From: Ignavibacteriota bacterium
Lineage (GTDB): Bacteria; Bacteroidota; Ignavibacteria; UBA10030
Assembly (NCBI GenBank): GCA_963727825.1
Contig: CAVSHO010000009.1
Span: 64,001 to 128,000 of the forward strand
DNA: 64,000 nt
Direction: 5' to 3'
Shown: positions 5,349 through 25,677 of the stretch, in pieces
Layout: every line of letters starts with the position of its first letter
How positions within the stretch are numbered: the first letter of the stretch is position 1
Program-made: the position numbers and the translations under genes
The notes under the pieces: generated by a model
Database searches by the model: none
The model's input: the letters and a program-made list of their open reading frames with translations, nothing else
What the model was told of the DNA's origin: nothing

Positions 5349-5890
5349 TTAAGCCATTCTTATATTTGCAATGGCATCAAGAGCGGGTTTTGGTTCATAG
5401 TGATAGTTGAATAACAACGGGTAGTCGGTTCGTCCGATAACAGGCCAACCACTACGCCATGATTGCTTATCATTAATTCCCAAAAAAGTTACCCGTTAAA
5501 ATTTATCACGATGCTTCAGAAAAATCGACATAAATTCCGAATATTTTTTTGCCTGTTTTTTTAAACAGAACCCGGCACAGCGCTCACATAGGGATTATTT
5601 TTTTCTGTATTTCAGGACTTAAAGAAGAAAAGAGTATGGCCGATCATTTGTAATCCAAGCTTTTCGCCGTATTCAACAAAACGATCTGCCGCTTCGAAAT
5701 TATATTGACCCGGAGCCGGATGAACCTCTTCCCACTTTAAAATATTTTCCGGAGTGATACTGTTAAAATGCTTCTGTACTATGGCATCTGAGCTTGGTTC
5801 TTTACCGTAAATCTGATTTTTATTAAGGGCGACACCAATAAGGAAGTCGCCCTTAAAAATATCTTTCAAGCCCTCTTGAAACTCGCCCAC
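5349..5890 (-). pseudogene. GH10 endo-xylanase remnant with a large internal deletion
   Basis: The N-terminal piece LKDIFKGDFLIGVALN...HFNSITPENILKWEEVHP...GHTL is joined at ~5630 to the C-terminal piece NPY...IFLKHRDKF*RVTFLGINDKQSW..WPVIGRTDYPLLF. There is an in-frame stop at 5496-5498 and a frameshift in an A-run near 5560. Both catalytic Glu segments are missing. Confidence 0.85.
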
Positions 5891-5897: not shown

Positions 5898-7218
5898 CTA
5901 GAAAATATAGGAGTTGATAATATTTTCTAGCATCTCCTGTCGGCCGCTCGGTAGAACTGGATTCTTTTCGTTACGAACCCATTTGTCTACATCTTCCATA
6001 GTAACCTTGCCGGACATAATCTGCTGGCCGATACCGGAATTGTGGCTGCTATATCTTTCTTCGATGAATTTGCTCAATACTTTATCCTGAATCATTTGAT
6101 GTGCAACCAATAGGCCTTTTGCAAATGCATCCATCCCGCCGATATGCGCATAGAAAAGATCCGTTGGATCATTGGAACTGCGGCGTACTTTTGCATCGAA
6201 ATTTAATCCGCCGGTACCGAGGCCATTCTGATTTAAAATAACCAACATTGCCATTGTAGTACTGTAAATATCGGTCGGAAATTGATCGGTATCCCATCCA
6301 AGAAGCAGATCGCCTCTGTTTGCATCTACACTTCCTAACCTTCCTGCCGCTGAAGCGACTGCAAGTTCGTGCTCAAACGTACTGCCAGCCAAGGTGCCAT
6401 GGTTTGCTTCGATATTCAATTTGAAGTCATCGAATAAATCAAATTCTCTCAAGAAGTTTAATGTCGTCGCTGCATCTGCATCATATTGATGCTTTGTCGG
6501 CTCGCATGGCTTCGGCTCAATAAGAAATTGGCATTTGAAACCAAGCTTCTTTTTATAATCCACAGCCATATGGAAAAATCGAGCCATCTTCTCCGCTTCT
6601 TTTTTCAAATCTGTATTTATTAATGTTTCGTACCCTTCACGTCCGCCCCAGAATACATAATTTTCACCGCCAAGTTCTTTCGTTGCATCGATTGCATTCT
6701 TCACTTGTGCTATCGCAGTGGCCATCACGTGTGCATTCGGACTTGATCCGGCGCCTTGAGAATAAATTGCATTGCTGAATAAATTTGCAGTGCCCCATAA
6801 CAATTTCACGCCGGTTTCTTTTTGAAATTTCTTTGCCACCTCAACCATGGCTTCCAAATTTTTGCATGTCTCAGCAAAAGTTTCGCCTTCAGGCGCGATA
6901 TCTCTATCATGGAAACAATAATAGTCTATTCCGCATTTTTGCAGAAATTCGAAATTCGCTTCCATAGTATCTTTCGCACGTTGCATAGGATTTGAAGATT
7001 TCCGCCATTCTCTTTCAAAACTTGGACCTCCAAACATATCAGCGCCATGTGCCCATCATAGTGTGCCAAAATGCAACTGAAAAACGAAGATGTTCCGCCA
7101 TCGTTTTATTGCCAACTTTTTGGTTCTTGTTGTAATATTTAAAAGCCAAAGGATTCTTTGAATCTTTACCTTCGTAAGGTATCGGCTTTTCAACTTTTGT
7201 AAAATATTTGTTCGTCAT
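5898..7218 (-). CDS. xylA: Xylose isomerase, class II; apparent +1 frameshift near 7047
   Basis: MTNKYF...NPLAFKYY...[11 protein letters not shown] continues in another frame as [55 protein letters not shown]. Confidence 0.95.
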
Positions 7219-7294
7219 ATCTACTCCTTCACTTTGATTTATTATATAGTTAAGTTTGAAAGATACATTCTCGCATTTTATCAGTTCAAACAAT

Positions 7295-7310
7295 ATTGAA
7301 CCGTTTTAAT
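7295..7310. promoter_or_regulatory. LacI-type operator upstream of xylA
   Basis: ATTGAACCGTTTTAAT, a near-palindrome with central CG, also found at 10162, 25448 and (variant) 25647. Confidence 0.75.
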
Positions 7311-7337
7311 AGTACAATTATTTATGATATGTGTCAA
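7309..7337 (-). promoter_or_regulatory. sigma70-type promoter of xylA
   Basis: Minus strand TTGACA-N17-TACTAT, directly abutting the operator. Confidence 0.7.
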
Positions 7338-9033: not shown

Positions 9034-10083
9034 TTACTTAGTGGAAAATTGATAAATAGTCGTTTGCTTATAAACATTGCCCGGTTTTAAAACAACAGAA
9101 GGGAACTCCGGTTTGTTCGGCGAATCAGGATAACCCTGGGCTTCCAGACAGAGCCCTGTTCTGCGTTTATAAACCACGCCGTTTTTCCCCCTGGTTTCAC
9201 CTAGAGAATTACCCGAATAGAATTGAATTCCAGGTTGATCAGTATATACTGTCATAGTTCGTCCGCTCTTAGGCTCTTGAACTTCTGCAACTTTGCGGAC
9301 TTTGCCGTTGTAGTTTTTTAGGACCCAGTTGTTATCGTAACCTCCTCCGATAAGGAGCTGTTCATATTTTTCATCGACGCGCGCGCCGATTGTCTTCATA
9401 GTTCGAAAATCCAGTGGAGTATTTGCAACATCAGCAAACTTGCCGGTTGGAATTTGTCCTTTGTCTACAAGCGTAAAAGAGTCGGCTTCAATACTGAGTT
9501 GATGATCCAGAATTGTCTGAGAGAGGTTACCTGATAAATTGAAATACGAATGCTGCGTTGGATTTAGAATGGTTGTTTTATCTGTTGTCCCTTTATAATC
9601 GACGCGGAGTTCGTTTTTATTGCTTAGTGTGTATGTAACAACAAGAGTAACTTTTCCAGGATAACCTTCTTCACCGTCGGGACTGATGAGTGTCAATTTA
9701 AGAGCCGGTTCATCTCCATCGAGAGCTTCTGCTTCCCAAAGTTTTTTATTGAATCCGACTATTCCGCCATGAAGGTGATTCTCTCCGTTGTTTGTGGCAA
9801 GTTGATAGGTCTTACCTTCCAACTGGAATCGGCCTTTGCCGATACGGTTTCCATATCGCCCAACAATTGATCCTAAAAACGTACTATCATTAATGTAACT
9901 CTGCAGCGTGTCATATCCTAGGACGACGTCTTCAAACTTGCCGTTCCGATCCGGGACGATGATTGATGTTACTATCGCTCCATAGTTTATAATTGCCACT
10001 TTACTGCCTGAAGAATTGGTTAGAGTATACTGATGGACTTCTTTGCCATCCGGGAGTTTACCAAACGATGTCTTATCAATCAC
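9034..10083 (-). CDS. galM: Aldose 1-epimerase (mutarotase)
   Basis: GRYGNRI, NHLHGG, NPTQHSYFNL, GYDNNW, QFYSGN, LCLEAQ. Confidence 0.92.
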   Translation of the reverse strand: MIDKTSFGKLPDGKEVHQYTLTNSSGSKVAIINYGAIVTSIIVPDRNGKFEDVVLGYDTLQSYINDSTFLGSIVGRYGNRIGKGRFQLEGKTYQLATNNGENHLHGGIVGFNKKLWEAEALDGDEPALKLTLISPDGEEGYPGKVTLVVTYTLSNKNELRVDYKGTTDKTTILNPTQHSYFNLSGNLSQTILDHQLSIEADSFTLVDKGQIPTGKFADVANTPLDFRTMKTIGARVDEKYEQLLIGGGYDNNWVLKNYNGKVRKVAEVQEPKSGRTMTVYTDQPGIQFYSGNSLGETRGKNGVVYKRRTGLCLEAQGYPDSPNKPEFPSVVLKPGNVYKQTTIYQFSTK

Positions 10084-10161
10084 TTGTTTTATCCTTTATA
10101 TTAAAAGTATGCTTGTTGTTTAAATATATATATAATAGAGTAACCCAAAAGTCAAAGAACA

Positions 10162-10177
10162 ATTGAACCGTTTCAAT
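10162..10177. promoter_or_regulatory. LacI-type operator upstream of galM-xylB
   Basis: ATTGAACCGTTTCAAT; the 27-bp context AAGAACAATTGAACCGTTTYAATATTA is shared with 25441-25467. Confidence 0.78.
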
Positions 10178-10365
10178 ATTACAATGTTGAATCTAAAAGG
10201 CAAATTAAAAATAAATTTATAAAAAGATATCTAAAAATCGTAAGAATCGCAAATTGTGGTTATGGGCTATTTTCATTTATGGATATTTTTATAAGCAAAA
10301 GAACCAAACAGTTATACAGGCGGCCATAATTATATGAGCGTTGGCAATGCTTCATTTAATAAACA

Positions 10366-10495
10366 TCCTCGCAGTCCCGCATAGCGGGACCAGGTATTTT
10401 GTCACTCCCGCGTACGCGGGAGTCTAATGTTCTGGATTCCTCCCGACTTTGTCGGGACGGGAATGACGACGCAAGCGTCGGGTTATTGAACCCGA
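10366..10495. repeat. GC-rich cluster of nested short palindromes (REP/RPE-like element)
   Basis: GTCCCGC-ATA-GCGGGAC, ACTCCCGCGTACGCGGGAGT, TCCCGAC-TTT-GTCGGGA, CGACGC-AA-GCGTCG and TCGGGTT..AACCCGA inside an AT-rich spacer; GTCACTCCC...GGGAATGAC frames the centre. Confidence 0.7.
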
Positions 10496-10677
10496 AGAAG
10501 AATAAATAAGTCTATGGAATTTCAGAATAGATAAGGTTATTTATATGAAATCTCTTTCATCATTTGGAATTGATAAAACATCACTTTCAACGCGTCAAAT
10601 CAAGATGCTTCTTTGCCGCCTTTTAGTAAAGTGTTTGATCGATATTTTTCTTTTTGTTTCAATAATTATTTATTTCT

Positions 10678-10707
10678 TTGACATCTGTTAAAATAATTAG
10701 GTAACCT
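10678..10707 (+). promoter_or_regulatory. Possible sigma70 promoter of the fhs operon
   Basis: TTGACA-N18-TAACCT about 120 bp upstream of fhs. Confidence 0.4.
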
Positions 10708-10827
10708 TATAATAGTTGAGTAAACTTACTGAAAGTTTTTTGAGCAATATTTTTCCTATAATAGTAATTACAAGTACCCCTTTCATAAAAAAATAGGATC
10801 CAATAATCTTTAAACGGGGATTTTATT

Positions 10828-12462
10828 ATGAAGAAAATTAAGGATATCGCTTCACAGTTGCATATCTCCGAGGATGATCTGATTCTCTATGGCAATTACA
10901 AAGCTAAAGTACCATTGAAATATATAGACAACAATAAACTAAGAAATAGCAATTTGATTCTGGTCTCAGCTATTTCTCCGACGCCCGCAGGAGAGGGAAA
11001 AACGACCATATCAATCGGTCTGACACAGGGAATGAATAGAATCGGAAAACAAACAACGGTCGTGCTGCGAGAACCTTCCCTTGGACCGGTCTTCGGAATG
11101 AAAGGTGGTGCGACAGGAAGCGGACATGCGCAGGTCGTTCCTATGGAAGACATCAATCTTCATTTCACCGGAGATTTTGCGACTATTGAGAAAGCACACA
11201 ATTTACTCGCTGCTCTGATAGACAATAACATTCAAAATAAAAAATATAATTTAGGAATTGATCCTCGAACAGTTCACTGGAAGCGAGTGATGGATATGAA
11301 CGATCGTTCGCTCAGAAAAATTATTGTTGGTCTTGGTGGAACTCTCTCGGGGATCCCGCGTGAAACTGGATTTGATATTACAGCTGCTTCGGAAGTCATG
11401 GCTATACTCTGCCTTGCGGAGAATCTTACCGACTTAAAGCGAAAATTGGGAAATATTTTCGTAGGATTTACTTTTGACAAGAACCCAATATATGCACGCG
11501 ATTTGAAAGCAAGCGGTGCAATGACCGCACTGTTAAAAGATACTATTATGCCCAATCTTGTACAAACCATTGAAGGAAATCCTGCAATTATTCACGGCGG
11601 TCCTTTTGCCAACATCGCACAAGGAACAAATAGCGTTGTTGCAACAAAGATGGGTTTATCTCTTTCAGATTATGCAGTTACAGAAGCTGGATTTGCATTT
11701 GATTTGGGAGCAGAAAAATTCTTTGATATAAAATGCGGTTATTCAGGATTATCGCCTAAAGCAGTCGTCCTTGTAGCAACGTTGAAAGCATTAAAATATC
11801 ATGGCGGTGCAGATTTAAAAACTGTTAACCAGCCGAATAAAGAAGCTTTGAAGAAAGGCCTGGGCAATCTCGAGAAACATATTGAAAACATTATTGCTTT
11901 CGGTATACGCCCGGCGGTTGCGATAAATAAATTTACCGCCGACACAGAAGAAGAGCTAAACATCGTAAAAGATAGGTGCAAAGAGCTTGGAGTGCCTGCA
12001 TCCATAGCAGATGTGTGGGGAAAGGGCGGTGAGGGTTCTATGGAGCTTGCAGAGATAGTCTGCGATATAGCAAAAAATTGCAAAAACAGATATATCCCAA
12101 CATATGATTGGAATTGGGATATTACGAAAAAAGTCGAAACCATTGCAAAAAATATTTATGGCGCAAAAGCAGTAGAGTATACAGCCAAAGCTAAAGCCGA
12201 TCTAGAAAAGATAGAGAAACTTGGTCTGGATAAACTTCCCGTGTGCATGGCAAAAACCCAGAACTCACTTTCCGATGATCCAAAACTACTTGGCAGGCCC
12301 CAAAACTTTCTGATAACAATAAGAGAAATTGAAGTTGCTGCCGGTGCTGGCTTTGTCATTCCGATCACGGGTGAAATAATGCGCATGCCGGGCCTTCCTG
12401 CTGTTCCGGCTGCCGAAAACGTCGATGTAGATGACAACGGAAAGATTACGGGATTATTCTAA
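10828..12462 (+). CDS. fhs: Formate--tetrahydrofolate ligase
   Basis: SPTPAGEGKTT, LREPSLGPVFGMKGGA, NLHFTGD, HGGPFANIAQG, TEAGF, MRMPGLP. Confidence 0.96.
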   Translation: MKKIKDIASQLHISEDDLILYGNYKAKVPLKYIDNNKLRNSNLILVSAISPTPAGEGKTTISIGLTQGMNRIGKQTTVVLREPSLGPVFGMKGGATGSGHAQVVPMEDINLHFTGDFATIEKAHNLLAALIDNNIQNKKYNLGIDPRTVHWKRVMDMNDRSLRKIIVGLGGTLSGIPRETGFDITAASEVMAILCLAENLTDLKRKLGNIFVGFTFDKNPIYARDLKASGAMTALLKDTIMPNLVQTIEGNPAIIHGGPFANIAQGTNSVVATKMGLSLSDYAVTEAGFAFDLGAEKFFDIKCGYSGLSPKAVVLVATLKALKYHGGADLKTVNQPNKEALKKGLGNLEKHIENIIAFGIRPAVAINKFTADTEEELNIVKDRCKELGVPASIADVWGKGGEGSMELAEIVCDIAKNCKNRYIPTYDWNWDITKKVETIAKNIYGAKAVEYTAKAKADLEKIEKLGLDKLPVCMAKTQNSLSDDPKLLGRPQNFLITIREIEVAAGAGFVIPITGEIMRMPGLPAVPAAENVDVDDNGKITGLF

Positions 12463-12496
12463 ATACAATTTATAAGAAAATGAAAGATCAAATTTA

Positions 12497-13369
12497 ATGA
12501 GCGTTGCAGGACTTACTATAATCGGCGAATCGATAAACGATTCGGTTCCATCTACTCACGAGCTTTTCGAAAAGAATGATATCGCCGGCATTATCGAGTT
12601 AGCAAAATCTCAAGCCGAAAGCGGTGCTGCCTATATCGACGTAAATGTCGGGCTACGTTCCCCTGGATTCATGGCGGATATTGTAAAAAAAATTCAGGAA
12701 CATATTTCTCTTCCGCTATCAATTGATACTCCAGATCCTGAAATAGCCGCTGCTGGATTGGAAGCTTACAATCCAGTGCTTGCCGGAAAGCGGAAACCGA
12801 TTCTGAACTCAATTTCCCAGGCACGGCTGCAAATGTTCGACATCTATAAGAGACAGCCATTCATTCCGATAATGCTCCTCACAGAGGGGGCAGAAAAAAG
12901 TGGCGATATTAAAATGAACAAAACTGCCGAAGAAACTTTCGCTACAGCAAAAATCATGATGCATATCGCACGCGAACGCATTAATGATGTAGAGAACAGC
13001 GAGCTGATTCTTGATCCGGGTATTATGCCAATCGGAAGTGATTCAGACGGAAATTTTAAGCGGCTGATAAATTCGATCAGGTTAATCCATGAAGATGCCG
13101 ATCTCAAGGGCGTGAATATGTCCGTCGGGCTTAGCAATTTTACTGTCATGTTGCCATCAAAACGCGCAGACGGTTCGCCGGTAAAAGGTCCGCTTGAAAG
13201 CGCTTTTTTAACAATGGCAATGCCCATGGGATTTAATACTATTATAGGTTCAGTGAAAAGGAAATATTCGATTCTTGCAGACGATCACCCAGCAATGCAG
13301 TGTTTAAAGGATGTGTTGGAATTAGAAGGTTATGATATCATTATGAGAGTTATGAGTTACTATTCTTAA
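12497..13369 (+). CDS. Pterin-binding methyltetrahydrofolate:corrinoid methyltransferase (AcsE / MT2 / MetH folate-domain-like)
   Basis: IIGESIN, YIDVN, LSIDT, ILNS, LDPG and VGLSN motifs of the DHPS-like pterin-binding barrel. Confidence 0.82.
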   Translation: MSVAGLTIIGESINDSVPSTHELFEKNDIAGIIELAKSQAESGAAYIDVNVGLRSPGFMADIVKKIQEHISLPLSIDTPDPEIAAAGLEAYNPVLAGKRKPILNSISQARLQMFDIYKRQPFIPIMLLTEGAEKSGDIKMNKTAEETFATAKIMMHIARERINDVENSELILDPGIMPIGSDSDGNFKRLINSIRLIHEDADLKGVNMSVGLSNFTVMLPSKRADGSPVKGPLESAFLTMAMPMGFNTIIGSVKRKYSILADDHPAMQCLKDVLELEGYDIIMRVMSYYS

Positions 13370-13395
13370 GATAATTTTGAAAAGAACTTAATTAA

Positions 13396-13854
13396 ATGCC
13401 GCTCGATTTTGTTACATCTGGAAAACCCCCAATATCACTCCGTGAACGGAAACTCTCCCGCTTCATGCTTTTTTTTGAGGACGTTGTAAAAGTTCCTCTA
13501 TTCGGTTGCCAGCATTGCGGTGAATGTATATTAGCTTCTACAGCTTTTATCTGCAGCCAAAGATGTCCTAAGCGGATACGCAACGGTCCATGCGGCGGTA
13601 CAGGCGAAGGAGGATCGTGTGAGGTGTTTCCGGAAAGAAAATGCGTATGGTACAGAATCTATTATCGGTCAAAATTGCTAAATCGTATCAGTTTGCTATA
13701 TCGCATAAAAAAAATACACAACTGGAATTTGGAAGGTACCTCAGCCTGGCTAAATCTATTCAAAAAGCGAATTGAGGCACCGACCTGGTTTCTCCGCAAT
13801 GATAAACAAAAGATAAAGGATATTATTTCCCGTGACACTCAAAGAAAAAATTGA
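13396..13854 (+). CDS. metV: MetV-like Cys-rich subunit of methylene-THF reductase
   Basis: CQHCGEC...IC.QRCPKRIRNGPCGG...CEV..ERKCVW; overlaps the metF start. Confidence 0.8.
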   Translation: MPLDFVTSGKPPISLRERKLSRFMLFFEDVVKVPLFGCQHCGECILASTAFICSQRCPKRIRNGPCGGTGEGGSCEVFPERKCVWYRIYYRSKLLNRISLLYRIKKIHNWNLEGTSAWLNLFKKRIEAPTWFLRNDKQKIKDIISRDTQRKN

Positions 13855-14728
13855 ATCAAATAGGTTCATTGTCTGCGGTGAGATAGGTCCACCCAAAAGC
13901 TGTGACGGCAATGTTATTCGGGAAAAGTCAAAGTACTTTAAAGGTCTTGTTGACGCAGTCAATATAACAGATAACCAAACGGCAGTTGTCAGTTTATCAA
14001 GTATTGCTTCAGCGAAGATATTGCTGGAGGAAGGCATCGAACCGATTATGCAAATGACATGCCGCGATCGGAACAGGATTGCAATCCAAAGTGATTTATT
14101 AGGTGCCGCTGCATTGGGCATCAACAATTTACTTTGTCTCACCGGCGATCATCAGAAATTCGGCGATCAACCCGAAGCTAAAGGCGTGTTCGATCTGGAT
14201 TCAATCCAACTAATTGCAACTGTTGCTAAAATGAACAGTGGTTTTTTCCTTTCCAATCAGGAAATGAAAAAAGCTCCGGATTTTCTCATCGGTGCCGCCG
14301 CAAATCCATTTGCCGAACCGTTTGAAATGCGGTTAATCCGTTTGCATAAGAAGGTAGAAGCCGGTGCGCGTTTCATACAAACTCAACCAGTGTTTCATAT
14401 GGAGGTTTTCAGGCGGTGGATGGAAAAAGTTGTCGAAATGGGACTGTATGAGAAATGCGCAATTCTTCCCGGTGTCATGCCAGTAAAATCGGAGAAAGTT
14501 TTGCTTCATATGAAAAAGGAAGTCCCTGGTGTAAAAATAAACGATGAATATATCAACCGCATGAAAGAAGCGCGCGATCCTAAAGAAGAAGGTATAAAAA
14601 TTGCAGTCGAAATGATTCAATCACTACAAAAGATAAAAGGCGTCCACGGTATCCATCTTATGCCCGTTATGTGGGAAAGCATCACTCCGATCATTATCAA
14701 AGAGGCAGGATTAGGAACGTTAAACTAA
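13832..14728 (+). CDS. metF: Methylenetetrahydrofolate reductase
   Basis: GEIGPPK, NITDNQ, QMTCRDRNRIAIQSDLLG, LCLTGD, KVEAGARFIQTQ. Confidence 0.92.
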   Translation: MTLKEKIESNRFIVCGEIGPPKSCDGNVIREKSKYFKGLVDAVNITDNQTAVVSLSSIASAKILLEEGIEPIMQMTCRDRNRIAIQSDLLGAAALGINNLLCLTGDHQKFGDQPEAKGVFDLDSIQLIATVAKMNSGFFLSNQEMKKAPDFLIGAAANPFAEPFEMRLIRLHKKVEAGARFIQTQPVFHMEVFRRWMEKVVEMGLYEKCAILPGVMPVKSEKVLLHMKKEVPGVKINDEYINRMKEARDPKEEGIKIAVEMIQSLQKIKGVHGIHLMPVMWESITPIIIKEAGLGTLN

Positions 14729-14755
14729 TCCTTTACATGGTTTATCATAAGAATA

Positions 14756-14792
14756 AACCTGTCACATTAAGTATGTTGAAATGTGACAGGTT
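14756..14792. terminator. Hairpin between convergent metF and esterase
   Basis: AACCTGTCACATT...AATGTGACAGGTT, 13-bp perfect arms. Confidence 0.6.
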
Positions 14793-14870
14793 CTATAATA
14801 TATCTCAATTGCAAAAATTTTTGTATGTTTCAATTTTTTAGGCAACGAGAAATTTTCACACTGTTATTCT

Positions 14871-16023
14871 TCACTGAACTTTTTTAGCAAAGGCTTCTCC
14901 TGCATACTGCTGCATTTGAAAACCATTAACCTTGCCTGTCTTATCTTTCTCAAAATGAATCGATAAAAACTGACCTTTGATGTAAAAATCTTTCTCAGTT
15001 TCTGCATAGAATGGTATCTTCTGGTTTCCAGGAGCAATGCCAACAAGTTGATTATCTTCTCGTACTATTTTGATATGAAATTGAGGACTGATTTCGTACT
15101 CGCCAACATATTGATCCAATATTTTGTCATCAATTTTTAAACAAGGCTTTTCAAATACATACTGTAATCCTCTGTTAAATCCTTCAGGTTTTGTTCCTGA
15201 ATGTCCGGATCCCTTTATTACCGGAGCTTCTACCTCTAGGCCTTCAATATGATAATCTCTAATAGTTGCTGCCAGTTTTTCAAAACCGGGGACATTCTCA
15301 TATTCACCCATCATCGTATACAGTTTTATTGGATGTGATAATTTTACTTTTGAGAATTTCTCTGCATACTTGTACAACGAAGCATTATCCCATGTCCAAG
15401 CTGGACTTCCAGCGACATAATGATTGAATAAATCGGGTTCAGTAAAGAGAGTATATAAAGTGAACAAACCACCTAGCGAGTGCCCAACCAATGTGCGTTC
15501 ATTTTTCTTTGTTCGATATTTTGATTCAATAAAAGGAATCGCTTCATTCTTAATGAACGAGAGAAATTTTTCGGCATTGCCAAATTGCGATGGCTGACCA
15601 CTGTTAGTTGGTGTTAAATCAAAAGCACGTCGTTTATCATAATTCGGATTTTCACCGCCCCACGTAATACCGGCAATAATAGCTGCAGGCATAAATCCGT
15701 CATAATATTGATCTCCGTAAATAGCTGTTACTAATGAAAAATCCCACTGGCTATCTACTAAATAAATAACCGGGTATGTTTTACTCGTATCTTCATAATG
15801 CTGCGGCAAGTTTATATGGAGTTCGTATTCCTGTCCGGTAATAGCAGAATGAATTTTCAAGAAGCTGTGAGCCGGCAATTTCAACCTGAGGTGGTCGAAC
15901 AGATGAAGCATCTTTTGCCTGGCCAAAACTTTGAGCAGATAAGAGTAAAGATAAAAAGATGAAAACAAAGATTTTACCAATCTTATCAAAACTATTATTA
16001 TGAATTTTGTGCAATGTGTTCAT
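14871..16023 (-). CDS. Secreted alpha/beta-hydrolase esterase (IroE/CE1-like) with a C-terminal DUF3471-like domain; apparent +1 frameshift near 15860
   Basis: Signal peptide in the 15793..16023 frame; YPVIYLVD, RAFDLTP, GHSLGG nucleophile elbow, GSGH; LDQYVGEY C-terminal domain. Confidence 0.78.
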
Positions 16024-16136
16024 AAGAATTCCCTTCTCAATGTGGATAATTTTAACGAGTAATTATCTATTATTTGACAACAAGCGAAAAATCAGAATCT
16101 CAAGGGGCTCAATTTCACAGGTTCTAACAGAATGAA

Positions 16137-17006
16137 TCAAAATCCGGTGCTTACTTCCGGAATACGCTTAAGGAGATCCCGCATCTGTTCCTGGTTCTCC
16201 TGTCCAATGGTGAATGCATCTATACAATTGAGGCTAAGGACGTACCGGAGGCATTCATCAATCTGATGGCGAAGTTGACCAGCTCCAAAAATTTTCATCC
16301 CAACAATTCCCTTTCCATCTTTATGCATTCTTCGTAAGACTTTAACCACCGTTGGGACATCGGCATCCATTACCGCCCCCGCTTGGTTAATTCTGGCAAG
16401 ATCAACCTGCACCCAATCTGAATTGGCAGCCGCTTCTAACGCCTTCAAAGAATGGCAGGAAACACCATGTGCGTGAATAATTCCCTGTTCGCGCGCTTTA
16501 GCTAAATACTCCATCGCTCCTTGCTTTTGACCGGGCCAGTCTGCATCTGTCATCATGTGCAACAGGACTATATCGATATAGTCGACTCCAATTTCCTTCC
16601 GGAATCGATCCAGATCTTCCTGCATTTCGCTGGCATCAGTTGCATGGGTCTTTGTCAATATCACAACGTTACTGCGTGGCACTCGCTTGAGTGCCTCTTT
16701 CATATGAGGATGACTTCCGTATTGATCTGCCGAATCCCAAAAGTTTATTCCCTGATCATATGCAGCACATAGAAGATCCGCGACACCCTTCATACCAAGT
16801 TCCCGTGTCTGATCCGAATGATGGTTATATCCATTCGTACCTGTGCCCATTGCTAATCGCGAAACCTTTATGCCCGTCTTGCCAAGTGTGATAATATCAT
16901 TTGCATATTTCTTATCCTCCCCCATAGCAAAAATCTTTGCCGCTGGTGAAAAAGCCAGAGCACCAGCAGTGGCCGCAGTATATTTGAAAAATTCACGTCT
17001 TCTCAT
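16137..17006 (-). CDS. Aldo/keto reductase with Tat signal
   Basis: MRRREFFK twin-arginine leader; LGKTGIKVSRLAMGT, WDSADQYG, LTK, DYIDIVLLH, GVSCH, GMKIFG. Confidence 0.85.
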   Translation of the reverse strand: MRRREFFKYTAATAGALAFSPAAKIFAMGEDKKYANDIITLGKTGIKVSRLAMGTGTNGYNHHSDQTRELGMKGVADLLCAAYDQGINFWDSADQYGSHPHMKEALKRVPRSNVVILTKTHATDASEMQEDLDRFRKEIGVDYIDIVLLHMMTDADWPGQKQGAMEYLAKAREQGIIHAHGVSCHSLKALEAAANSDWVQVDLARINQAGAVMDADVPTVVKVLRRMHKDGKGIVGMKIFGAGQLRHQIDECLRYVLSLNCIDAFTIGQENQEQMRDLLKRIPEVSTGF

Positions 17007-17089
17007 AACAGGAATTTTTATATGTTCAAATCAATTGGTGGATAGTAAATGTATCATTCGATTTAAATATGTGGGTGATTTAAAAATTA

Positions 17090-18115
17090 TTATTTTCTCA
17101 CCGCTTCGATAAATGCTTTAATGTTTTCCGTACTAACTGCGGGCGGCATCCCTCCTCCGCAAGAAAAAATTACTTTAGATTTATCAATCAAAGAATTTAC
17201 TAGATCGATTGTTGTTTCTGTAACCTTGGCGGTATCGCTGCTTGCCAAAACATCGCGCGGAGGAATATTACCTACTAATGTTACTCTATTTTGGGTCAAT
17301 TGTTTCAATTCATTCAAAGAAATATCAAAACCCATATTGAATAGATTTACTCCTATCTCCGGTAGCATAGGTGCAGACACCTTGCAGGGGGCATCATTAT
17401 GCAAAAATTTGATAGAAACACTTGCATCAAATAATTCTTTGAAATATGGCAATCCGAAAGTGCGAAATTCTTCCTCCCCCATAAAACCGATTATATCGTC
17501 CAGCAAAAGAATCCCGTCGATGGATGGGAATGTTTCCATTTGCAGATTCAGCCAATCCTTAAGAAATAACGTGATTTTTTTCATTAGTGTTTCAGCTTTT
17601 TCCGGCTGCATCATCATCGTAGTCAAAAATTCTGTAGAGCCCATTAGATAACTGGCAATATTTAGAGGACCGCGGGCTACGGCAAATCGAATTTTATGCC
17701 CGGCTGCTTCAATTTTTGGTTGGGCAAGTCTTAAACGATTGAGCATGAATGGCAAAAGACCATCTGTTTTCGGGTTCGGCTGCAGAAGCGAATCTATATC
17801 ATCAACCGATTGGATAATTTTATGCGCATGCGGAAATTCGTTCATCGGGAATACGCAGCGTGCTCCAAACGCCGATGGTTCAGTACACATACCGAATTCA
17901 GACCAGAATCCTGGCAGAAACATTACCTCTGGAAAATCCTGGAGTGCTTTCAAATTTGCCTTCAACCATAATTCATCATTTGAAAAATAGTCAAGAATAT
18001 TAATGCCATACCAATTCGGTAACCATGGACAATCAATAATGAAACCCACCGGCAAAGGATTTAAAATTTCTCCCTTTATTATTTTCTGAAGCATTTCCCA
18101 TTGTTGATCTGTCAT
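17090..18115 (-). CDS. UroD/MtaA(CmuA)-superfamily protein, candidate substrate:corrinoid methyltransferase (MT1)
   Basis: TEPSAFGA, RGPLNIASYLMG, LLLDD, FLHND, LVGNIPP, FSCGGGMPP..STENIKAF. It lacks the WxMRQAGR motif of true HemE and sits in a corrinoid cassette. Confidence 0.75.
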   Translation of the reverse strand: MTDQQWEMLQKIIKGEILNPLPVGFIIDCPWLPNWYGINILDYFSNDELWLKANLKALQDFPEVMFLPGFWSEFGMCTEPSAFGARCVFPMNEFPHAHKIIQSVDDIDSLLQPNPKTDGLLPFMLNRLRLAQPKIEAAGHKIRFAVARGPLNIASYLMGSTEFLTTMMMQPEKAETLMKKITLFLKDWLNLQMETFPSIDGILLLDDIIGFMGEEEFRTFGLPYFKELFDASVSIKFLHNDAPCKVSAPMLPEIGVNLFNMGFDISLNELKQLTQNRVTLVGNIPPRDVLASSDTAKVTETTIDLVNSLIDKSKVIFSCGGGMPPAVSTENIKAFIEAVRK

Positions 18116-18194
18116 CCTACTTTCCCTTCATTCTTTTATGCAACGACCATTTCTATTTGCATATTACTATTTCTGTTTTTTACGGACTCAAACT

Positions 18195-18950
18195 TTATGA
18201 TTTGTGAATAGCACGTTCTGCTTTGGCGACGCGAATTGCTCTATATGTACAATCCTTCATACCGCATGTATCGCAGGTATAATCGACTCTTTTAACTGCT
18301 TTTCCGACACCTATAATCCCACTAACAGATTTAATCGGCACCATTAATGAAGATTCGGTCAGAGTGATTCCACAAAAATTAGCTGGAAAGAACGAAAATA
18401 GGAGTTGTTGTTCCGACACAGACCAATCGCAATAACCTGGACTGTACCTATTGGTAATTTTTAGTCCTTGTAACCGCATTTGCTTTTCGATGTGATCATG
18501 AAGCACATCAGTTGTCTGTTCTTCTGTTACCGATGCAACAATATCGACCATGTAACCTAACGTGGCATCACCGTCGGCAAACAATTTTTTTGCCCAGGTT
18601 TCCATCGCCCGGCCTATGGTACAGACAAACAACGCTGCCTTTTCGGATTTTCTGAGCTGGCTTGTAACAATCTTTTGTAATCTGAAAAATTTATTCCCGA
18701 TAATTAATCCATCATTTCGATCTTCGGTTTTTTTAACATCGAGAAGCCGATAGCCTGCTTGTATTTCACAATATTCTGGTAATCGAAAAAGAATATCATC
18801 GATCATTTCTTCAAAATGTGGCGGAATTGTTCCCTTCGTATATCCAAGAGCAGTCACGATTTCATTTTTACTAATTGATAGATCGCTGAAGTTAATTTTA
18901 ACTTCAAAAGTATCTTTCTCTCGTTCGATTTGTGGAAATATAATTTCCAT
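18195..18950 (-). CDS. Stand-alone B12-dependent methionine synthase reactivation (SAM-binding) domain protein
   Basis: FVCTIG, TNRYSPGYCDW, GITLTESSLMVPIKSVSGIIG, C-terminal CDTCGMKDCTYR. Confidence 0.85.
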   Translation of the reverse strand: MEIIFPQIEREKDTFEVKINFSDLSISKNEIVTALGYTKGTIPPHFEEMIDDILFRLPEYCEIQAGYRLLDVKKTEDRNDGLIIGNKFFRLQKIVTSQLRKSEKAALFVCTIGRAMETWAKKLFADGDATLGYMVDIVASVTEEQTTDVLHDHIEKQMRLQGLKITNRYSPGYCDWSVSEQQLLFSFFPANFCGITLTESSLMVPIKSVSGIIGVGKAVKRVDYTCDTCGMKDCTYRAIRVAKAERAIHKS

Positions 18951-19834
18951 CAGTGAACTCTAATTGCATGGACTAAACTCTGGATATGTGACGGCGTAGT
19001 ACCACAGCAACCACCGATAATATTCGCCCCGCTATTTATCAAATCCTGAACTTTTGCAGCCATCATTTCCGGTGTTTCCGGAAAATCCGTTTTACCATCT
19101 TGATAAATAGGCTTGCCTGCGTTGGCATGGACGAGGATAGGAGTTGATGGATCAATACTTCTGATTTCCTTTACTATGTCAATCATTTGATCGAATCCGT
19201 TTCCGCAATTCGTCCCGATGACACAAGCTCCAGCATCCTTAATCGCCTGGACCATTTCCGCAGGTGCAACTCCCATCATCGTACGGTATTCACCATTGAG
19301 GGTTTTTTCAAAAGTAAAGGTACATGCAATTTCCAAACCAGTAGATTCATGCGCTGCACGAACCGCGAGACACGCTTCATCAAGAGCAGACATAGTTTCT
19401 ACACAAATGGCATCTACGCCGCCTTTTTTAAGAGCTTCTGCTTGAATACAGAATCCGTCGTATAATGTCTCTTCAGATACTTGTCCCATCATCAACATGA
19501 TGCCAGTAGGACCGATGGAGCCAAGCACAAGATGATTTCCACCTGCTGCTTCTCTTGAGATAGCAGCAGCAGCTTCATTTAACTCGGAGGTACGATCTTG
19601 CAACCCATAATGCTCCAACTTAGACGGACTGCCGCCAAAACTGTTGGTGAGAATCATATCAGCACCGGCGTCGATATAACTATTGGCAATTGCAAACACA
19701 TCGTTGCGGTGAGTAACATTCCAAAGTTCCGGACATTCCCCGGGCTGTAAACCACGTTGATATAAAAATGTTCCCCAAGCACCATCGGAGATGAGGACTT
19801 TTTTTTCTTTTAGCGCCGTTAGAAGTAAACTCAT
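18950..19834 (-). CDS. Stand-alone homocysteine S-methyltransferase domain (MetH N-terminal module)
   Basis: SDGAWGT, AGADMILTNSFG, GSIGPTG, ETMS, GTNCG, ANAGKP, IGGCCGTTP (three Zn-binding Cys). Confidence 0.88.
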   Translation of the reverse strand: MSLLLTALKEKKVLISDGAWGTFLYQRGLQPGECPELWNVTHRNDVFAIANSYIDAGADMILTNSFGGSPSKLEHYGLQDRTSELNEAAAAISREAAGGNHLVLGSIGPTGIMLMMGQVSEETLYDGFCIQAEALKKGGVDAICVETMSALDEACLAVRAAHESTGLEIACTFTFEKTLNGEYRTMMGVAPAEMVQAIKDAGACVIGTNCGNGFDQMIDIVKEIRSIDPSTPILVHANAGKPIYQDGKTDFPETPEMMAAKVQDLINSGANIIGGCCGTTPSHIQSLVHAIRVH

Positions 19835-19903
19835 TCCTGATTTTCCCGATTACTTAAAAATTATTATCCTGTTGCCAAGGTGAGTTGTTTTTCTTTTATC
19901 AGG

Positions 19904-20572
19904 TTATGCAATACTAATTTTATCTAGAAATGCCACCGCACCCTGAGGATCATGAGAATAGCTATCTGCACCCATTTTCAAGGCAGCTTCCATAGTCAAA
20001 GGCGCACCGCCAACAATAATTTTCGTGTCTGGAAATTGTGTTTTAATTTCCTGAACTGTTTTCGACATATTGATCATAGTCGTCGTTAGCAAAGTGCTTA
20101 AACCGACTATGCAACCCGGAGTATTCCTGATCGTTTCTAAAAATTTGGCCGATTTAACATCGACACCCAAGTCTATTACTTCCCAGCCATTACCTTCGAT
20201 AACCATTCTGACAAGATTTTTGCCAATGTCATGCAAGTCGCCTGCGACAGTACCAAGCACAAATTTTCCCTTTGCTTTAATACTTCCCTTTTTGAAAAAT
20301 GGTTCAAGATGAACCATTACAACCTGCATCGCTTTAGCTGCCATTAATAGTTCAGGAACAAATACTTCGTTTCTACTGAACCGTTCCCCGATCCGCTGCA
20401 TTCCATCGTTGCATGCTTTTAGAATAATATCAGGGCCCACTCCTTCTAATAATGCTTGCTTTGTCAATTCATCCGCACCTTCCTGATTTTTTAAATCGGG
20501 TGGATATGGGGCAATCTTGTTAACCTTTCCTCGTTCAATGCATAAACTAATTCTATCAACCAATTCACTCAT
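19904..20572 (-). CDS. Corrinoid (cobalamin-binding) protein, cap plus B12 domain
   Basis: GMQRIGERF..NEVFVPELLMAA, GDLHDIGKNLV (DxHxxG), DLGVDV, GLSTL, IVGGAP. Confidence 0.92.
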   Translation of the reverse strand: MSELVDRISLCIERGKVNKIAPYPPDLKNQEGADELTKQALLEGVGPDIILKACNDGMQRIGERFSRNEVFVPELLMAAKAMQVVMVHLEPFFKKGSIKAKGKFVLGTVAGDLHDIGKNLVRMVIEGNGWEVIDLGVDVKSAKFLETIRNTPGCIVGLSTLLTTTMINMSKTVQEIKTQFPDTKIIVGGAPLTMEAALKMGADSYSHDPQGAVAFLDKISIA

Positions 20573-20637
20573 GTCGAATTCCTTTTGCTATATCGATACT
20601 AGATTTTTCTTAGTTTAAAATTGTGGATCAATAATAT

Positions 20638-22347
20638 CTATTTATATACCTCGTCATTCCCTTGGTACTCAAACCAATCATAATTTGCTATGTTCTTGCT
20701 CATCTGGCCCAGTGAAGTAGCGTACATTGCGTACATAGAACCAACAAATCCACCGGCAATCCGCGTACTTAAGAATGTGGCATCAACATTGTCCTTAAGC
20801 AAATTCCATTGATTGTATATCGAGGAATAGAAAAATGCATACGTGTTTCCCCGTGCTTCAATTTTTAAGTACACTGCTTTTTCGGACATTTCTTTAGAAA
20901 GTTTTTGAGATGCCAAGAGTTCCATAGTGTTGCGTTTAGATCCGGTTCCCGATTTATACAATTGAACCACCGGCTCATTTTCATCAACCGACTCACAAAG
21001 AAAGTAAAAATGTTCTTCATTTTGGAAAACTAACAGACCGGCTTTTTCATTACTTCCCTGAGGGGAGAATTCTAAGGCGACGCTTGCAGACCCATATGCA
21101 TGCTGTTGACGTCTGCCAATAAAACTCGGGTTCTTAATTCCAGAACACATTTCTGGCCTTACCTTGATCGATAGAAATCCCTTCTTACTCTCAAGATTAT
21201 ACCAACTTTCATGTGGAGTTCTCAGGAAGACCCAATCCGGATGAAGTTTTGGCTGATCAAATTCATCTCTGAGAATGAAATTACCGCTGTACGGATGAGA
21301 ATCTTCATCGATGGATGATTGCATTGGATATGGATACGAATACTGAACCAATTCGTAGTCAGGGTTGATAACCGGCCAGCCATCCTTCCATTTTACTGGC
21401 GCTAGAAATGTCTCTCGGCCAATATTCGTATAACCCTCTTCAACAGGTGGATAGGGCCTGGAACCTAAAAAGACCGACCACCAATCTCCAGCATTTGTCT
21501 GCACAAAGTCGGCATGCCCGGTACAGGTTATGGGAAATTTCCGTTTGGGATCCAAATGCCGCTGAGTAAGAATTGGATTTTTCTGATATGGAATATATGG
21601 ACCTTCCACCTTTGTACTTCTAAAAACCACTTCTGAATGCTGATCTGCCGTTCCACCTTCCGCTGCTATAAGATAATAGAATCCATCTTTCTGAAATATG
21701 TGAGGTCCCTCGATCCAGACCGGTTTCTTTGAAATATCAACCCCACCATTTACTAGTAATATTTCTTCTCCCATCGTCTTGAGGCTGTCAAAATCGAATG
21801 CACGCATTCTGATCGTCCGATGGCCGTCATAGAGAGACCTATCATTTGGCGGTATACTATTATAGAGTATGTAGGCATTCCCGTTTTTATCGAAAAACAA
21901 TGAGGGGTCTATACCGTTGATTTGCGGCAGCCAGACGGGGTTGGACCATGGTCCTGCAGGATTTTTTGCTGTAATAACAAAATTCCCGCCTATATCTACC
22001 AATGTGCAGGTAATATAATAGAGTCCTTTATGATGCCGAATAGCTGGTGCAAAAATGCCGCGAGATACACCTTGGCCATCGAGATTCAATTGTTCCACTC
22101 GATTCATTGCATGACCAATGAGCTTCCAATGCACTAAATCCTTACTGTGGAAGACCGGGATACCGGGGAAATATGAAAATGACGAGTTCACTAAATAATA
22201 ATCCGTCCCGACCCTGCAAATACTCGGATCTGGATAGAAGCCAGCAAGAATTGGATTCGTGAATCCCTTTTTATCCTGCGCAGATGAATTGCAGCATAGA
22301 ATGAAAAAGAGTATGAAGAAGACTGTTCGCATAATTAATCGATCCAT
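20638..22347 (-). CDS. GH43 beta-xylosidase/arabinofuranosidase with C-terminal beta-sandwich, secreted
   Basis: NPILAGFYPDPSICR, IFAP, IDPSLF, WIEGPH, AEGGT, GHAD, GRETFL; signal peptide. Confidence 0.92.
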   Translation of the reverse strand: MDRLIMRTVFFILFFILCCNSSAQDKKGFTNPILAGFYPDPSICRVGTDYYLVNSSFSYFPGIPVFHSKDLVHWKLIGHAMNRVEQLNLDGQGVSRGIFAPAIRHHKGLYYITCTLVDIGGNFVITAKNPAGPWSNPVWLPQINGIDPSLFFDKNGNAYILYNSIPPNDRSLYDGHRTIRMRAFDFDSLKTMGEEILLVNGGVDISKKPVWIEGPHIFQKDGFYYLIAAEGGTADQHSEVVFRSTKVEGPYIPYQKNPILTQRHLDPKRKFPITCTGHADFVQTNAGDWWSVFLGSRPYPPVEEGYTNIGRETFLAPVKWKDGWPVINPDYELVQYSYPYPMQSSIDEDSHPYSGNFILRDEFDQPKLHPDWVFLRTPHESWYNLESKKGFLSIKVRPEMCSGIKNPSFIGRRQQHAYGSASVALEFSPQGSNEKAGLLVFQNEEHFYFLCESVDENEPVVQLYKSGTGSKRNTMELLASQKLSKEMSEKAVYLKIEARGNTYAFFYSSIYNQWNLLKDNVDATFLSTRIAGGFVGSMYAMYATSLGQMSKNIANYDWFEYQGNDEVYK

Positions 22348-22351
22348 TTTT

Positions 22352-25381: not shown

Positions 25382-25447
25382 TTCGCATCCTTTATTTCTG
25401 CAAAAACCTTTATAGAATTTCGAGAACTTTGATGTTAATTAAGAACA

Positions 25448-25463
25448 ATTGAACCGTTTTAAT
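25448..25463. promoter_or_regulatory. LacI-type operator upstream of the GH115 operon
   Basis: ATTGAACCGTTTTAAT; on the minus strand it directly follows TTACCT-N17-TAATAT. Confidence 0.78.
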
Positions 25464-25646
25464 ATTAGCCACATTATATTATTAAGGTAAGAAAAAACCT
25501 CTGAAAAAAAAGCAACAATATCCCGCTAAATAACTCCACAATAATTGCTGCTTCGTAGGTGAAAAACTATTTTAAAGTTTATTAAGTTCAATGTGAATTA
25601 AATCGATTTTATTTAATACTTTCATATTTAATTGCTTATTACTATT

Positions 25647-25662: not shown

Positions 25663-25677
25663 TCTAAGGAAGGTTAT

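Follow-up and report, generated by a model that had tools for sequence, protein, structure and literature searches.

The window analysed here, 64,000 nt of the genome of an Ignavibacteriota bacterium (C9:64001-128000 in an assembly of 3.12 Mb and 14 contigs, 96.8% complete with 6.55% contamination), contains at 10828-14728 four intact plus-strand open reading frames (ORFs) for one-carbon enzymes of tetrahydrofolate (THF), namely, fhs, a pterin-binding methyltransferase gene, metV, and metF, which form a tight single operon with, in order, spacings of 34 nt and 26 nt and a 23-nt overlap between metV and metF. Homologues of the window proteins carry the labels Ignavibacteria, Ignavibacteriales, or Bacteroidota metagenome-assembled genomes (MAGs). 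A sequence-only reading of this DNA had placed four linked folate genes here, between galM-xylB-xylA and a corrinoid cassette on which they converge, with folD at 31741, and had proposed that they dispose of glycan methyl groups as formate with a gain of ATP. ORFs and profile matches bear out this arrangement: the minus strand upstream of fhs carries galM, xylB, xylA, a PfkB kinase, GH3, and GH116, and on its other side the operon converges with an eight-gene minus-strand string that ends 142 nt away. The operon genes and folD are the following.

10828-12462, plus strand: fhs, formate-tetrahydrofolate ligase (PF01268, 831.8 bits; NF010030, 835.2 bits)
12497-13369, plus strand: predicted pterin-binding methyl-THF:corrinoid protein methyltransferase, of the methyltransferase II (MT II) or MtgD-like type, with an AcsE-like fold (PF00809, 55.4 bits)
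13396-13854, plus strand: metV, small Cys-rich subunit of a MetVF-type methylene-THF reductase (PF12225, 90 bits; 8 Cys)
13832-14728, plus strand: metF, catalytic subunit of methylene-THF reductase (PF02219, 142.9 bits)
31741-32643, minus strand: folD, single copy in the genome, 17 kb away (profile match)

Fhs matches the equivalog model NF010030 over its full length (residues 1-544; cut-off, 652 bits) and belongs to this family, and the PF02219 MetF adjoined by a Cys-rich PF12225 MetV identifies the pair as a MetVF-type reductase. FolD is required by the route proposed below and has no specific linkage to the operon. The pterin methyltransferase is clearly above the PF00809 cut-off of 25.5 bits, and its top NCBIfam model is the methyl-THF:corrinoid/Fe-S protein methyltransferase, at 108 bits and under the cut-off of 259. 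Its nearest structures in the PDB are the Carboxydothermus MeTr 2yci (7e-11) and 4o0q (1e-10), which we take to be the MT II of a Desulfitobacterium O-demethylase, followed by the folate module of Thermotoga maritima MetH, 1q7m. It aligns with 2yci and 4o0q through the motifs IGExIN, IDVN, SIDT, NS, DP, and GLSN, and residues D48, N50, D77, S105, D173, S213, and N214 are invariant among 14 homologues, including paralogues at 25-30% identity; the conserved Asp and Asn positions presumably contact the pterin. Two entries of the same structure set as 4o0q, 4O1E and 4O1F, serve as MT II templates (PMC13222342). Judged by its sequence, the protein belongs to the family made up of MeTr/AcsE, the MT II of O-demethylases, MtgD, and the MetH folate module. 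Of the "acsE-like" label given earlier, the fold and the pterin motifs stand, while AcsE proper can be discarded, with NF040758 at 70.2 bits against a cut-off of 370 and no AcsB or CooS in the genome (the genes of the corrinoid iron-sulfur protein were not searched).

The string on the opposite strand reads, in the direction of transcription, GH115, GH43, corrinoid protein, homocysteine S-methyltransferase (HcyMT), MetH-activation-like protein, methyltransferase with the uroporphyrinogen decarboxylase (UroD) fold, aldo/keto-reductase-like protein, and PF00756 esterase. We refer to its UroD-fold, corrinoid, HcyMT, and activation-domain genes as the cassette and to the pterin methyltransferase, metV, and metF genes as the trio.

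22352-25381, minus strand: GH115 alpha-(4-O-methyl)glucuronidase, first gene of the string (PF15979, 500.4 bits)
20638-22347, minus strand: GH43 beta-xylosidase/arabinofuranosidase
19904-20572, minus strand: corrinoid (B12-binding) protein (PF02310 and PF02607)
18950-19834, minus strand: HcyMT, MtgE/BHMT-like (PF02574, 226.3 bits)
18195-18950, minus strand: MetH activation-domain-like protein, candidate reductive reactivation module (PF02965, 44.7 bits)
17090-18115, minus strand: UroD-fold methyltransferase, candidate substrate-specific methyltransferase I (MT I) (PF01208, 120.8 bits)
16137-17006, minus strand: aldo/keto-reductase-like protein with a twin-arginine-type N-terminus (MRRREFF...)
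14871-15989, minus strand: esterase (PF00756 and DUF3471) with a GHSLGG nucleophile elbow, last gene of the string

The corrinoid protein has the DxHxxG (GDLHDIGKN), SxL, and GG motifs, and the genome encodes no other stand-alone protein of this kind. HcyMT, whose top NCBIfam model is NF005718 (262 bits), retains an intact Cys...Cys-Cys zinc motif (TNCG, GGCCG). The UroD-fold gene is the one real member of its family in the genome. We rejected HemE, the UroD proper, as its identity, as TIGR01464 gives 62.2 bits against a cut-off of 303 and the distribution of the gene is patchy and linked to glycan loci. The protein is as remote from the MtaA and CmuA models as from those of HemE (about 62 bits each, far under the cut-offs), and the fold search does not separate the two types either, its AlphaFold2 model (pLDDT 83) having Foldseek TM scores of 0.76 to UroD 4wsh and 0.75 to MtaA 4ay7. 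With regard to an MtaA-like His/Cys/Cys zinc site, H239 is invariant, and C244 and C319 are kept in at least 85% of 19 close homologues and not across the 33%-identical paralogues; published MT I enzymes include some with zinc and some without (PMC13222342). In the available text of PMC13222342 and PMC10418091, the aryl O-demethylase MT I enzymes MtvB, OdmB, VdmB, and MtoB, and the haloalkane enzymes CdmB and CmuA are placed in the UroD superfamily. For reactivation, the genome has no activase of the RACo/RamA type that we could find (no PF14574 and no tblastn match with the RACo of the relative G039), and a PF02965 activation-domain protein is present instead. The components of a corrinoid methyltransferase system, that is, UroD-fold MT I, DxHxxG corrinoid protein, and pterin MT II, are therefore all found in the locus, split over two convergent operons. 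Paralogous clusters in G039 and G018 do encode RACo, and in these clusters (L054, G039:C64, 4113-6225; L055, 13317-14573) proteins of 424, 287, and 418 amino acids without a Pfam or NCBIfam family adjoin it, the first of which is weakly similar to the activation-domain protein of the window (21% over 198 amino acids).

The distribution of these genes was followed in 61 genomes (our own and 60 relatives in its order) and in a phylum-wide sample of 201. Within the order, a UroD-fold orthologue is present in 20 genomes and a 33%-identical paralogue in 5 more, and the corrinoid orthologue occurs in the same genomes as the UroD-fold orthologue, with the exception of G059. Intact orthologues of the pterin methyltransferase are restricted to 11 genomes, all 11 with the UroD-fold orthologue. 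Two further genomes without the UroD-fold gene (G001 and G010) have the methyltransferase reduced to fragments with stop codons beside an intact metV-metF, which accounts for the 13 genomes with metV (11 with an intact and 2 with a decayed methyltransferase). A profile search of the phylum sample gave the same picture, with three intact pterin methyltransferases, all in UroD-fold genomes, and the decayed copy of G010. From this nested pattern and the decay in G001 and G010, the trio emerges as an accessory unit, whose methyltransferase is kept only where the cassette exists. The metF of the operon is likewise a second, accessory methylene-THF reductase (MTHFR), the other one being a 611-aa fused HcyMT-MTHFR on contig C7, 37% identical to it. 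The genome has three pterin-binding proteins, namely, that of the operon, a 302-aa frame with a strong PF00809 match that is probably FolP, and a MetH-like frame of 1177 aa on C8, so that methionine synthesis and the housekeeping MTHFR appear to be encoded elsewhere.

Physical linkage adds to this pattern. An fhs-trio converging on the cassette is found only in our genome, G005, G009, and G013, the four closest by UroD identity; among 16 UroD loci from relatives, fhs-trio is present in 2, GH115 in 10, and the corrinoid gene in 12. In G004 and G015, the trio lies in the order asd-lysC-dapB-dapA, ABC-2 transporter, trio, major facilitator superfamily (MFS) transporter, LolA-like gene, and G004 continues with a binding-protein-like gene, fhs, and then Nramp (G015 has no Fhs). 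At the corresponding position in our genome, the ABC-2 permease and MFS genes are separated by just 36 nt and the LolA-like and Nramp genes by 110 nt, so that this genome has the trio and fhs solely beside the cassette, and the operon seems to have moved next to the GH115 operon. G009 has the trio in both places, with a broken pterin methyltransferase in the old one. The trio has also joined the cassette independently in at least three other arrangements: UroD-pterin methyltransferase-metV-metF-corrinoid paralogue in another Ignavibacteriota MAG (L077); a MetV::MetF fusion-pterin methyltransferase followed by activation domain-corrinoid-HcyMT, divergent from UroD-GDSL esterase-CE8-uxaC, in a Lentimicrobiaceae genome (L132); and, in the 33%-identical paralogous system of G039 and G018, UroD-corrinoid-HcyMT-MetF::MetV-pterin methyltransferase as one string, which adjoins GH115-GH43 or galM-GH10 and xylB-uxuA. 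The phyletic pattern, the decay upon loss of the cassette, and the repeated independent clustering tie the pterin methyltransferase to the cassette, and we consider it highly probable that the operon as a whole is coupled to it.

A predicted complex of the corrinoid protein and the pterin methyltransferase lends weak support to this pairing and may reflect likeness to solved MeTr and MetH complexes. Its ipSAE was 0.58 (best of three controls, 0.00), in a range (up to 0.60) where only 7 of 80 solved complexes reached the mark, along with both passing mismatched pairs; over all values, 58 of these 80 and 2 of 110 mismatched pairs attained it. The partners were modelled with a pLDDT of 91 or more, and contact agreement between runs was at least 66%.

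We infer a route in which the UroD-fold methyltransferase would move the methyl group of a xylan-derived methoxy compound, the likeliest donor being 4-O-methyl-glucuronate released by GH115, to the corrinoid protein, from which the pterin-binding methyltransferase of the operon would pass it to THF; MetVF would oxidize methyl-THF to methylene-THF, FolD would take this to formyl-THF, and Fhs would release formate and make ATP. Each reaction, the flux direction, the donor, and the electron acceptor of MetVF are predictions of the same kind. The HcyMT of the cassette would offer a second outlet, to methionine, which the sequence-only reading did not include, the MetH-type activation domain would re-reduce the cofactor, and methylene-THF might alternatively be assimilated via serine.

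The direction of the flux is approached best through variant clusters. In G039, ten co-directional genes with short gaps read GH115-GH43-IlvD-like dehydratase-FAH-like-PurU-UroD-corrinoid-HcyMT-MetF::MetV-pterin methyltransferase, and the PurU is plainly recognizable as a formyl-THF deformylase (TIGR00655, 400.7 bits; cut-off, 286). In L064, a PurU 80% identical to that of G039 lies upstream of a 79%-identical UroD orthologue, at a distance of 17 nt. PurU hydrolyzes formyl-THF to formate irreversibly, so in these clusters the one-carbon unit leaves as formate. By analogy, the variants favor the oxidative direction, and Fhs, in a genome with no PurU orthologue by tblastn, would occupy the equivalent place and conserve ATP. 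The host genome has no pyruvate formate-lyase (PFL), AcsB, or Prismane/CooS, and no formate dehydrogenase (FDH), as its molybdopterin matches are confined to NuoG of complex I; at 96.8% completeness these absences are not proof. The lack of FDH and of carbon monoxide dehydrogenase/acetyl-CoA synthase (CODH/ACS) noted earlier for the window therefore extends to searches of the whole genome, no full acetogenic pathway was found behind the operon, and, given the absence of AcsB, CooS, and FDH, the host is not an acetogen. Because of the PurU clusters, the lack of PFL and FDH, and a MetH encoded elsewhere, net methyl oxidation is the better reading, and oxidation to formate with a gain of ATP is plausible and somewhat more likely than not. 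We give about an even chance to the combined statement that the operon is an accessory THF one-carbon module that serves the B12 cassette of the opposite strand and carries its methyl groups to formate.

With regard to the methyl donor, within the order 21 of 22 genomes with GH115 carry the UroD-fold gene or its paralogue, versus 4 of 39 without GH115. A pattern scan for the UroD-fold protein with one genome per species confirmed 588 relatives, and the best 80 of them (55-91% identical) come from Ignavibacteriota, Bacteroidales, Chitinispirillaceae, Opitutaceae and other Verrucomicrobia, Spirochaetes, Planctomycetes, Acidobacteria, KSB1, Calditrichaceae, Marinimicrobia, Hydrogenedentes, and Alphaproteobacteria. 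The neighbours in these 80 loci are most often the other cassette genes (corrinoid protein in 32, HcyMT in 29, activation domain in 27), followed by GH115 (19), GH43 (17), a conserved MFS transporter (11), uxuA (10), and GH67 (4), and there are few folate genes (PurU in 2, trio genes in 3-4, fhs in 2). At least one of GH115, GH67, uxuA, and uxaC occurs in 29 of the 80, and 13 of the 53 loci of at least 15 kb show none of them. One Acidobacteriota locus reads MFS-UroD-UxuA-short-chain dehydrogenase/reductase (SDR), with GH67 alongside. Among cultured carriers, Anaerophaga thermohalophila (L115) has the UroD-fold, corrinoid, and activation-domain genes. We can suggest 4-O-methyl-glucuronate, the product of GH115 and GH67, as the most economical donor, with a chance of being right that we put at about even or slightly better, while aromatic methoxy compounds or methyl esters are possible donors. 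The literature searched gave no account of how anaerobes handle the methyl ether of 4-O-methyl-glucuronic acid.

Regulation of the locus was examined in the intergenic regions, with these features.

10084-10827: divergent intergenic region between galM and fhs, with a LacI-type operator at 10161-10178 near galM and GC-rich hairpins at about 10374-10495
25447-25464: LacI-type operator upstream of GH115, inside a 27-nt element
25678-26709, plus strand: LacI-family regulator of the xylan locus

The 27-nt element, with the palindrome TTGAACCGTTTCAA, is found before galM (10155-10181) and before GH115 (25441-25467) with one mismatch between the copies, and related LacI-type operators lie before lacI (25646-25663) and before xylA (7294-7311). 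The 18-nt operator pattern has 4 matches in the window, against 0.17 expected from shuffles. At 10374-10495, five consecutive perfect or near-perfect GC-rich hairpins, such as GTCCCGCATAGCGGGAC and CTCCCGCGTACGCGGGAG, stand out in an AT-rich intergenic region and look like an array of repetitive extragenic palindromic (REP)-like elements or stacked terminators; the fhs promoter is presumed to be downstream of them. No Rfam family reached its gathering threshold anywhere in the window, so no THF, SAM, or cobalamin riboswitch was found upstream of the operon. Neither promoter-like sites (52 at 10000-26000; shuffles, 46.0 ± 6.3) nor terminator-like sites (16 in the same range; shuffles, 13.7 ± 3.7) are in excess, and none of the listed terminator-like sites lies in the 142-nt convergent gap. 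A search for sequencing runs that hold this DNA listed no RNA run and 11 DNA runs, the best of them with 0.40 of the words.

Several observations weigh against the oxidation of glycan methyl groups by this operon. Both Fhs and the pterin methyltransferase can run in either direction. The trio is missing from nine of the 20 genomes that have the UroD-fold orthologue, so the cassette works there without the folate branch, presumably via homocysteine; its core unit would then be UroD-corrinoid-HcyMT-activation domain, with the methyl group presumably handed to homocysteine. Seven other genomes have the trio away from glycan genes, and in the only two of these that were annotated, G004 and G015, the asd-lysC-dapB-dapA neighbourhood fits amino acid biosynthesis. 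The expectation of linkage to glycan loci in relatives consequently holds in the four close genomes and fails in these seven. Fhs is patchy in the order (12 of 61 genomes, 11 of them with a UroD-fold gene), a pattern that we tried as a marker of the system and abandoned, as it is overturned by the phylum sample, where 53 of the 201 genomes have Fhs, only 2 of these 53 have the UroD-fold gene, and 6 of the 8 UroD-fold genomes lack Fhs. In G044 and G060, Fhs and the cassette are both present, with no pterin methyltransferase at an E value of 1e-20 or below. The housekeeping copies of metF and fhs that the sequence-only reading had thought of looking for exist in the case of MTHFR, and fhs is in a single copy, an outcome that this reading had itself named as counting against it. 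There is no xylan-type operator near fhs, the closest being about 650 nt upstream of its start, beyond the GC-rich hairpins. A tblastn search detected no uxuA in the genome, which leaves the demethylated uronate, and with it the conversion of glucuronate to KDG, without an assigned route, and the literature searched contained no corrinoid-dependent cleavage of an alkyl, as opposed to an aryl, methyl ether. Taken together, the methyl-disposal proposal is partly upheld, by the gene identities, the missing CODH/ACS and FDH, the accessory metF, and the tie between pterin methyltransferase and cassette, and it is weakened by an Fhs that is the sole copy and is not tied to the cassette across the phylum.

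On the distribution of Fhs we also observed that the copies of G044 (C8) and G060 (C28), in loci L140 and L143 of another family of the order, are 91-92% identical (G044, 92%) to the Fhs of the window, while several genomes of its own genus are at 88-91%, which suggests horizontal transfer of fhs within the order. Around the Fhs genes of G044, G060, G039, and G012, no gene of the cassette or the trio was detected by tblastn.

The same genes could be read in the anabolic direction, with the operon working reductively from formate or methylene-THF to methyl-THF and forming, together with the corrinoid protein, HcyMT, and activation domain, a split B12-dependent methionine synthase, for which the UroD-fold protein would be only an extra methyl source, without net methyl oxidation. 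Each of the four MetH modules has a protein of its own, the zinc motif of HcyMT is intact, the top NCBIfam matches are MtgC-like and BHMT/MtgE-like, the trio adjoins asd-lysC-dapB-dapA in two relatives, metV-metF survive the loss of the cassette in G001 and G010, and split methionine synthases are known (PMC12478193). We nevertheless regard this reading as unlikely, as the genome already has the 1177-aa MetH-like frame and the fused HcyMT-MTHFR and nearly all relatives in the order have MetH-length frames, while the trio is present in only 13 of 61. Moreover, the pterin methyltransferase decays without the UroD-fold gene, PurU appears in variant clusters, neither PFL nor FDH was found as a formate supply, and the operon was relocated beside the GH115 operon. 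The same folate branch could serve another donor, be it ferulate or vanillate set free by the esterase from feruloylated xylan or lignin, methanol, or uronate methyl esters. In the available parts of PMC13222342 and PMC10418091, all characterized O-demethylase MT I enzymes of the UroD superfamily (MtvB, OdmB, VdmB, and MtoB) use methoxylated aromatics; the PF00756 esterase that ends the string has homologues in 9 of the 80 loci, in L132 a CE8 pectinesterase gene adjoins that of the UroD-fold protein, and on chemical grounds a phenolate or carboxylate leaves better than a sugar alkoxide. Such a donor seems rather improbable to us, because the UroD-fold gene goes with GH115 (19 of 80 loci; 21 of 22 genomes), GH67, uxuA, and MFS more than with esterases, its protein is equally remote from the MtaA/CmuA and HemE models (about 62 bits each), and the loci showed no methanol methyltransferase of the MtaB type.

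That housekeeping folate genes came to lie beside a xylan locus by chance, without any functional tie to the cassette, would agree with the single copies of Fhs and FolD, with the 53 phylum genomes that have Fhs, of which just 2 have the UroD-fold gene, and with the lack of a proximal xylan operator. It is very improbable all the same, since without a corrinoid partner a pterin methyltransferase has no housekeeping function and the sole stand-alone corrinoid protein of the genome sits in the cassette, all 11 intact orthologues are in UroD-fold genomes and the enzyme decays once the cassette is lost, there are at least three other independent clusterings, and Fhs occurs in only 12 of 61 relatives. 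A remnant or part of an acetogenic Wood-Ljungdahl pathway, whose methyl branch does consist of Fhs, FolD, MetVF, and an AcsE-like methyltransferase, is hardly credible in a genome with 96.8% completeness, no AcsB, CooS/Prismane, or FDH, and a complex I, and with a methyltransferase that scores 70 bits against the NF040758 cut-off of 370. Membership in this pathway was rejected on the missing CODH/ACS and FDH.

Other observations concern the neighbourhood and the assembly. The aldo/keto-reductase-like protein at 16137-17006 begins with a twin-arginine-type signal, MRRREFFKYTAATAGALAFSPAA, is probably exported, and is found together with the PF00756 esterase next to the UroD-fold genes of L054, L060, and L064. 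Between the xylan locus and folD there is a B12-binding radical SAM protein with DUF4070 (30194-31681, plus strand), and a 65%-identical homologue lies less than 10 kb from the UroD-fold gene in L089. The sole uxaC of the genome is part of a pectin locus (L138, C10:102000-121990) with KduI, SDR, CE8-like, and GH28 genes, a GDSL esterase, and a GH88-family gene. A 92-aa ORF at 5612-5890 (minus strand), flanked by xylA and the PfkB kinase gene, aligns with no more than the first 82 positions of GH10 (PF00331) and is a truncated xylanase remnant. The xylA gene itself (5898-7293, minus strand) is split over two frames, with residues 1-65 of a relative's XylA in frame -2 (about 7048-7266) and residues 46-446 in frame -3, and the frameshift near 7050-7100 is either real or an assembly indel. 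Two plus-strand genes are also split into overlapping ORFs of different frames, the valyl-tRNA synthetase (46406-48661 and 48606-49154) and an S8 peptidase (41644-43047 and 42857-44461), which suggests assembly indel errors, as valS is essential.

About one in ten xylose residues of hardwood xylan bears 4-O-methyl-glucuronic acid. It is possible, although we advance it only tentatively, that the locus encodes everything needed to process the 4-O-methyl ether of glucuronoxylan without oxygen, with B12-dependent cleavage of the alkyl ether by the UroD-fold enzyme, transfer to THF, and release of formate with one ATP. If the cassette is that demethylase, then the window shows the fate of the methyl group, which would reach the folate pool by way of a dedicated methyltransferase and a second MTHFR and leave it as formate, with ATP conserved, with a side branch to methionine. 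Methyl groups of hemicellulose would in that case be an unrecognized energy source for fermenters and an unrecognized source of formate in anoxic environments, linking hemicellulose decay to the formate supply of methanogens and acetogens, and corrinoid methyltransferases would gain a new class of donor and biomass conversion a testable set of enzymes. If the anabolic explanation is the true one, the locus would be another split methionine synthase, of modest interest.

Methylotrophic acetogens run the methyl branch of the Wood-Ljungdahl pathway in reverse, and Fhs yields ATP. The proposed route resembles theirs in that Fhs, FolD, and a MetVF-type MTHFR would oxidize methyl-THF, and it differs in that no CODH/ACS or FDH was found here, so that formate would be the end product instead of acetate or CO2. 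The chloromethane gene set of Methylobacterium comprises cmuA, cmuB, metF2, folD, and purU. In it, CmuA unites MT I and corrinoid protein and CmuB is the MT II (PMC13222342). In both routes a UroD-related MT I would pass the methyl group by way of a corrinoid to THF, for oxidation by a dedicated second metF, folD, and a formate-releasing enzyme, and the PurU-bearing clusters of G039 and L064 follow the same logic; the cmu host, however, is aerobic, with chloromethane as donor and a CmuA fusion, and our locus has the ATP-conserving Fhs instead of PurU. The corrinoid O-demethylases and related systems MtvABC, OdmABCD, VdmB, MtoABCD, and CdmBCA, as far as described in the available text of PMC13222342 and PMC10418091, share with it a UroD-superfamily MT I, a corrinoid protein, a pterin-binding MT II with methyl-THF as its product, and a component for reactivation. 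These systems use aryl methyl ethers or haloalkanes, feed the Wood-Ljungdahl pathway or respiration, and depend on ATP-driven RACo/RamA, whereas here there is no CODH/ACS and we find a MetH-type activation domain, an extra HcyMT, and the setting of a GH115 operon. The mlp gene clusters were set aside, since in the portion of PMC10418091 at hand they have several SCMT-like Mlps and Ram and no THF or homocysteine methyltransferase. Removal of a methyl ether from a polysaccharide-derived sugar for catabolism, encoded in glycan utilization loci, is also known from marine bacteria, whose cytochrome P450 sugar O-demethylases act on 6-O-methyl-galactose (PMC6292453); these P450s, the sugar demethylases that the literature searches turned up, are oxygen-dependent mono-oxygenases of unrelated fold and cofactor that, in the text available, give formaldehyde and keep no methyl group on folate.

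The best functional model for the locus appears to be MtgBCDE of Ruegeria pomeroyi, where MtgB, MtgC, the bidirectional pterin-binding MtgD, the adjoining MetF2, and the homocysteine-binding MtgE link demethylation, one-carbon oxidation on THF, and methionine (Mausz et al. 2025, PMC12478193). MetF2 is proposed there to oxidize methyl-THF, and the PF02574 protein makes methionine (PMC12478193). We rejected membership in MtgBCDE for our locus, which has modules 1-3, as its substrate methyltransferase is of the UroD-fold family PF01208 and not of PF06253 (MttB family). By the available account of that system, there are further differences in the presumed donor (a sugar or plant methoxy compound here, glycine betaine there), in the reactivation (a MetH-type activation domain here, RamA/DUF1638 there), and in the MetVF-type MTHFR, the Fhs inside the operon, and the Ignavibacteria-type polysaccharide-degrading host found here. 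What the two have in common, and share with the split methionine synthase of Phaeobacter inhibens, are separate corrinoid, pterin, and PF02574 proteins. As in MtgBCDE, a second metF stands beside the pterin methyltransferase and one corrinoid hub would serve both demethylation and methionine, so by analogy the locus would function like MtgBCDE without being a member of it.

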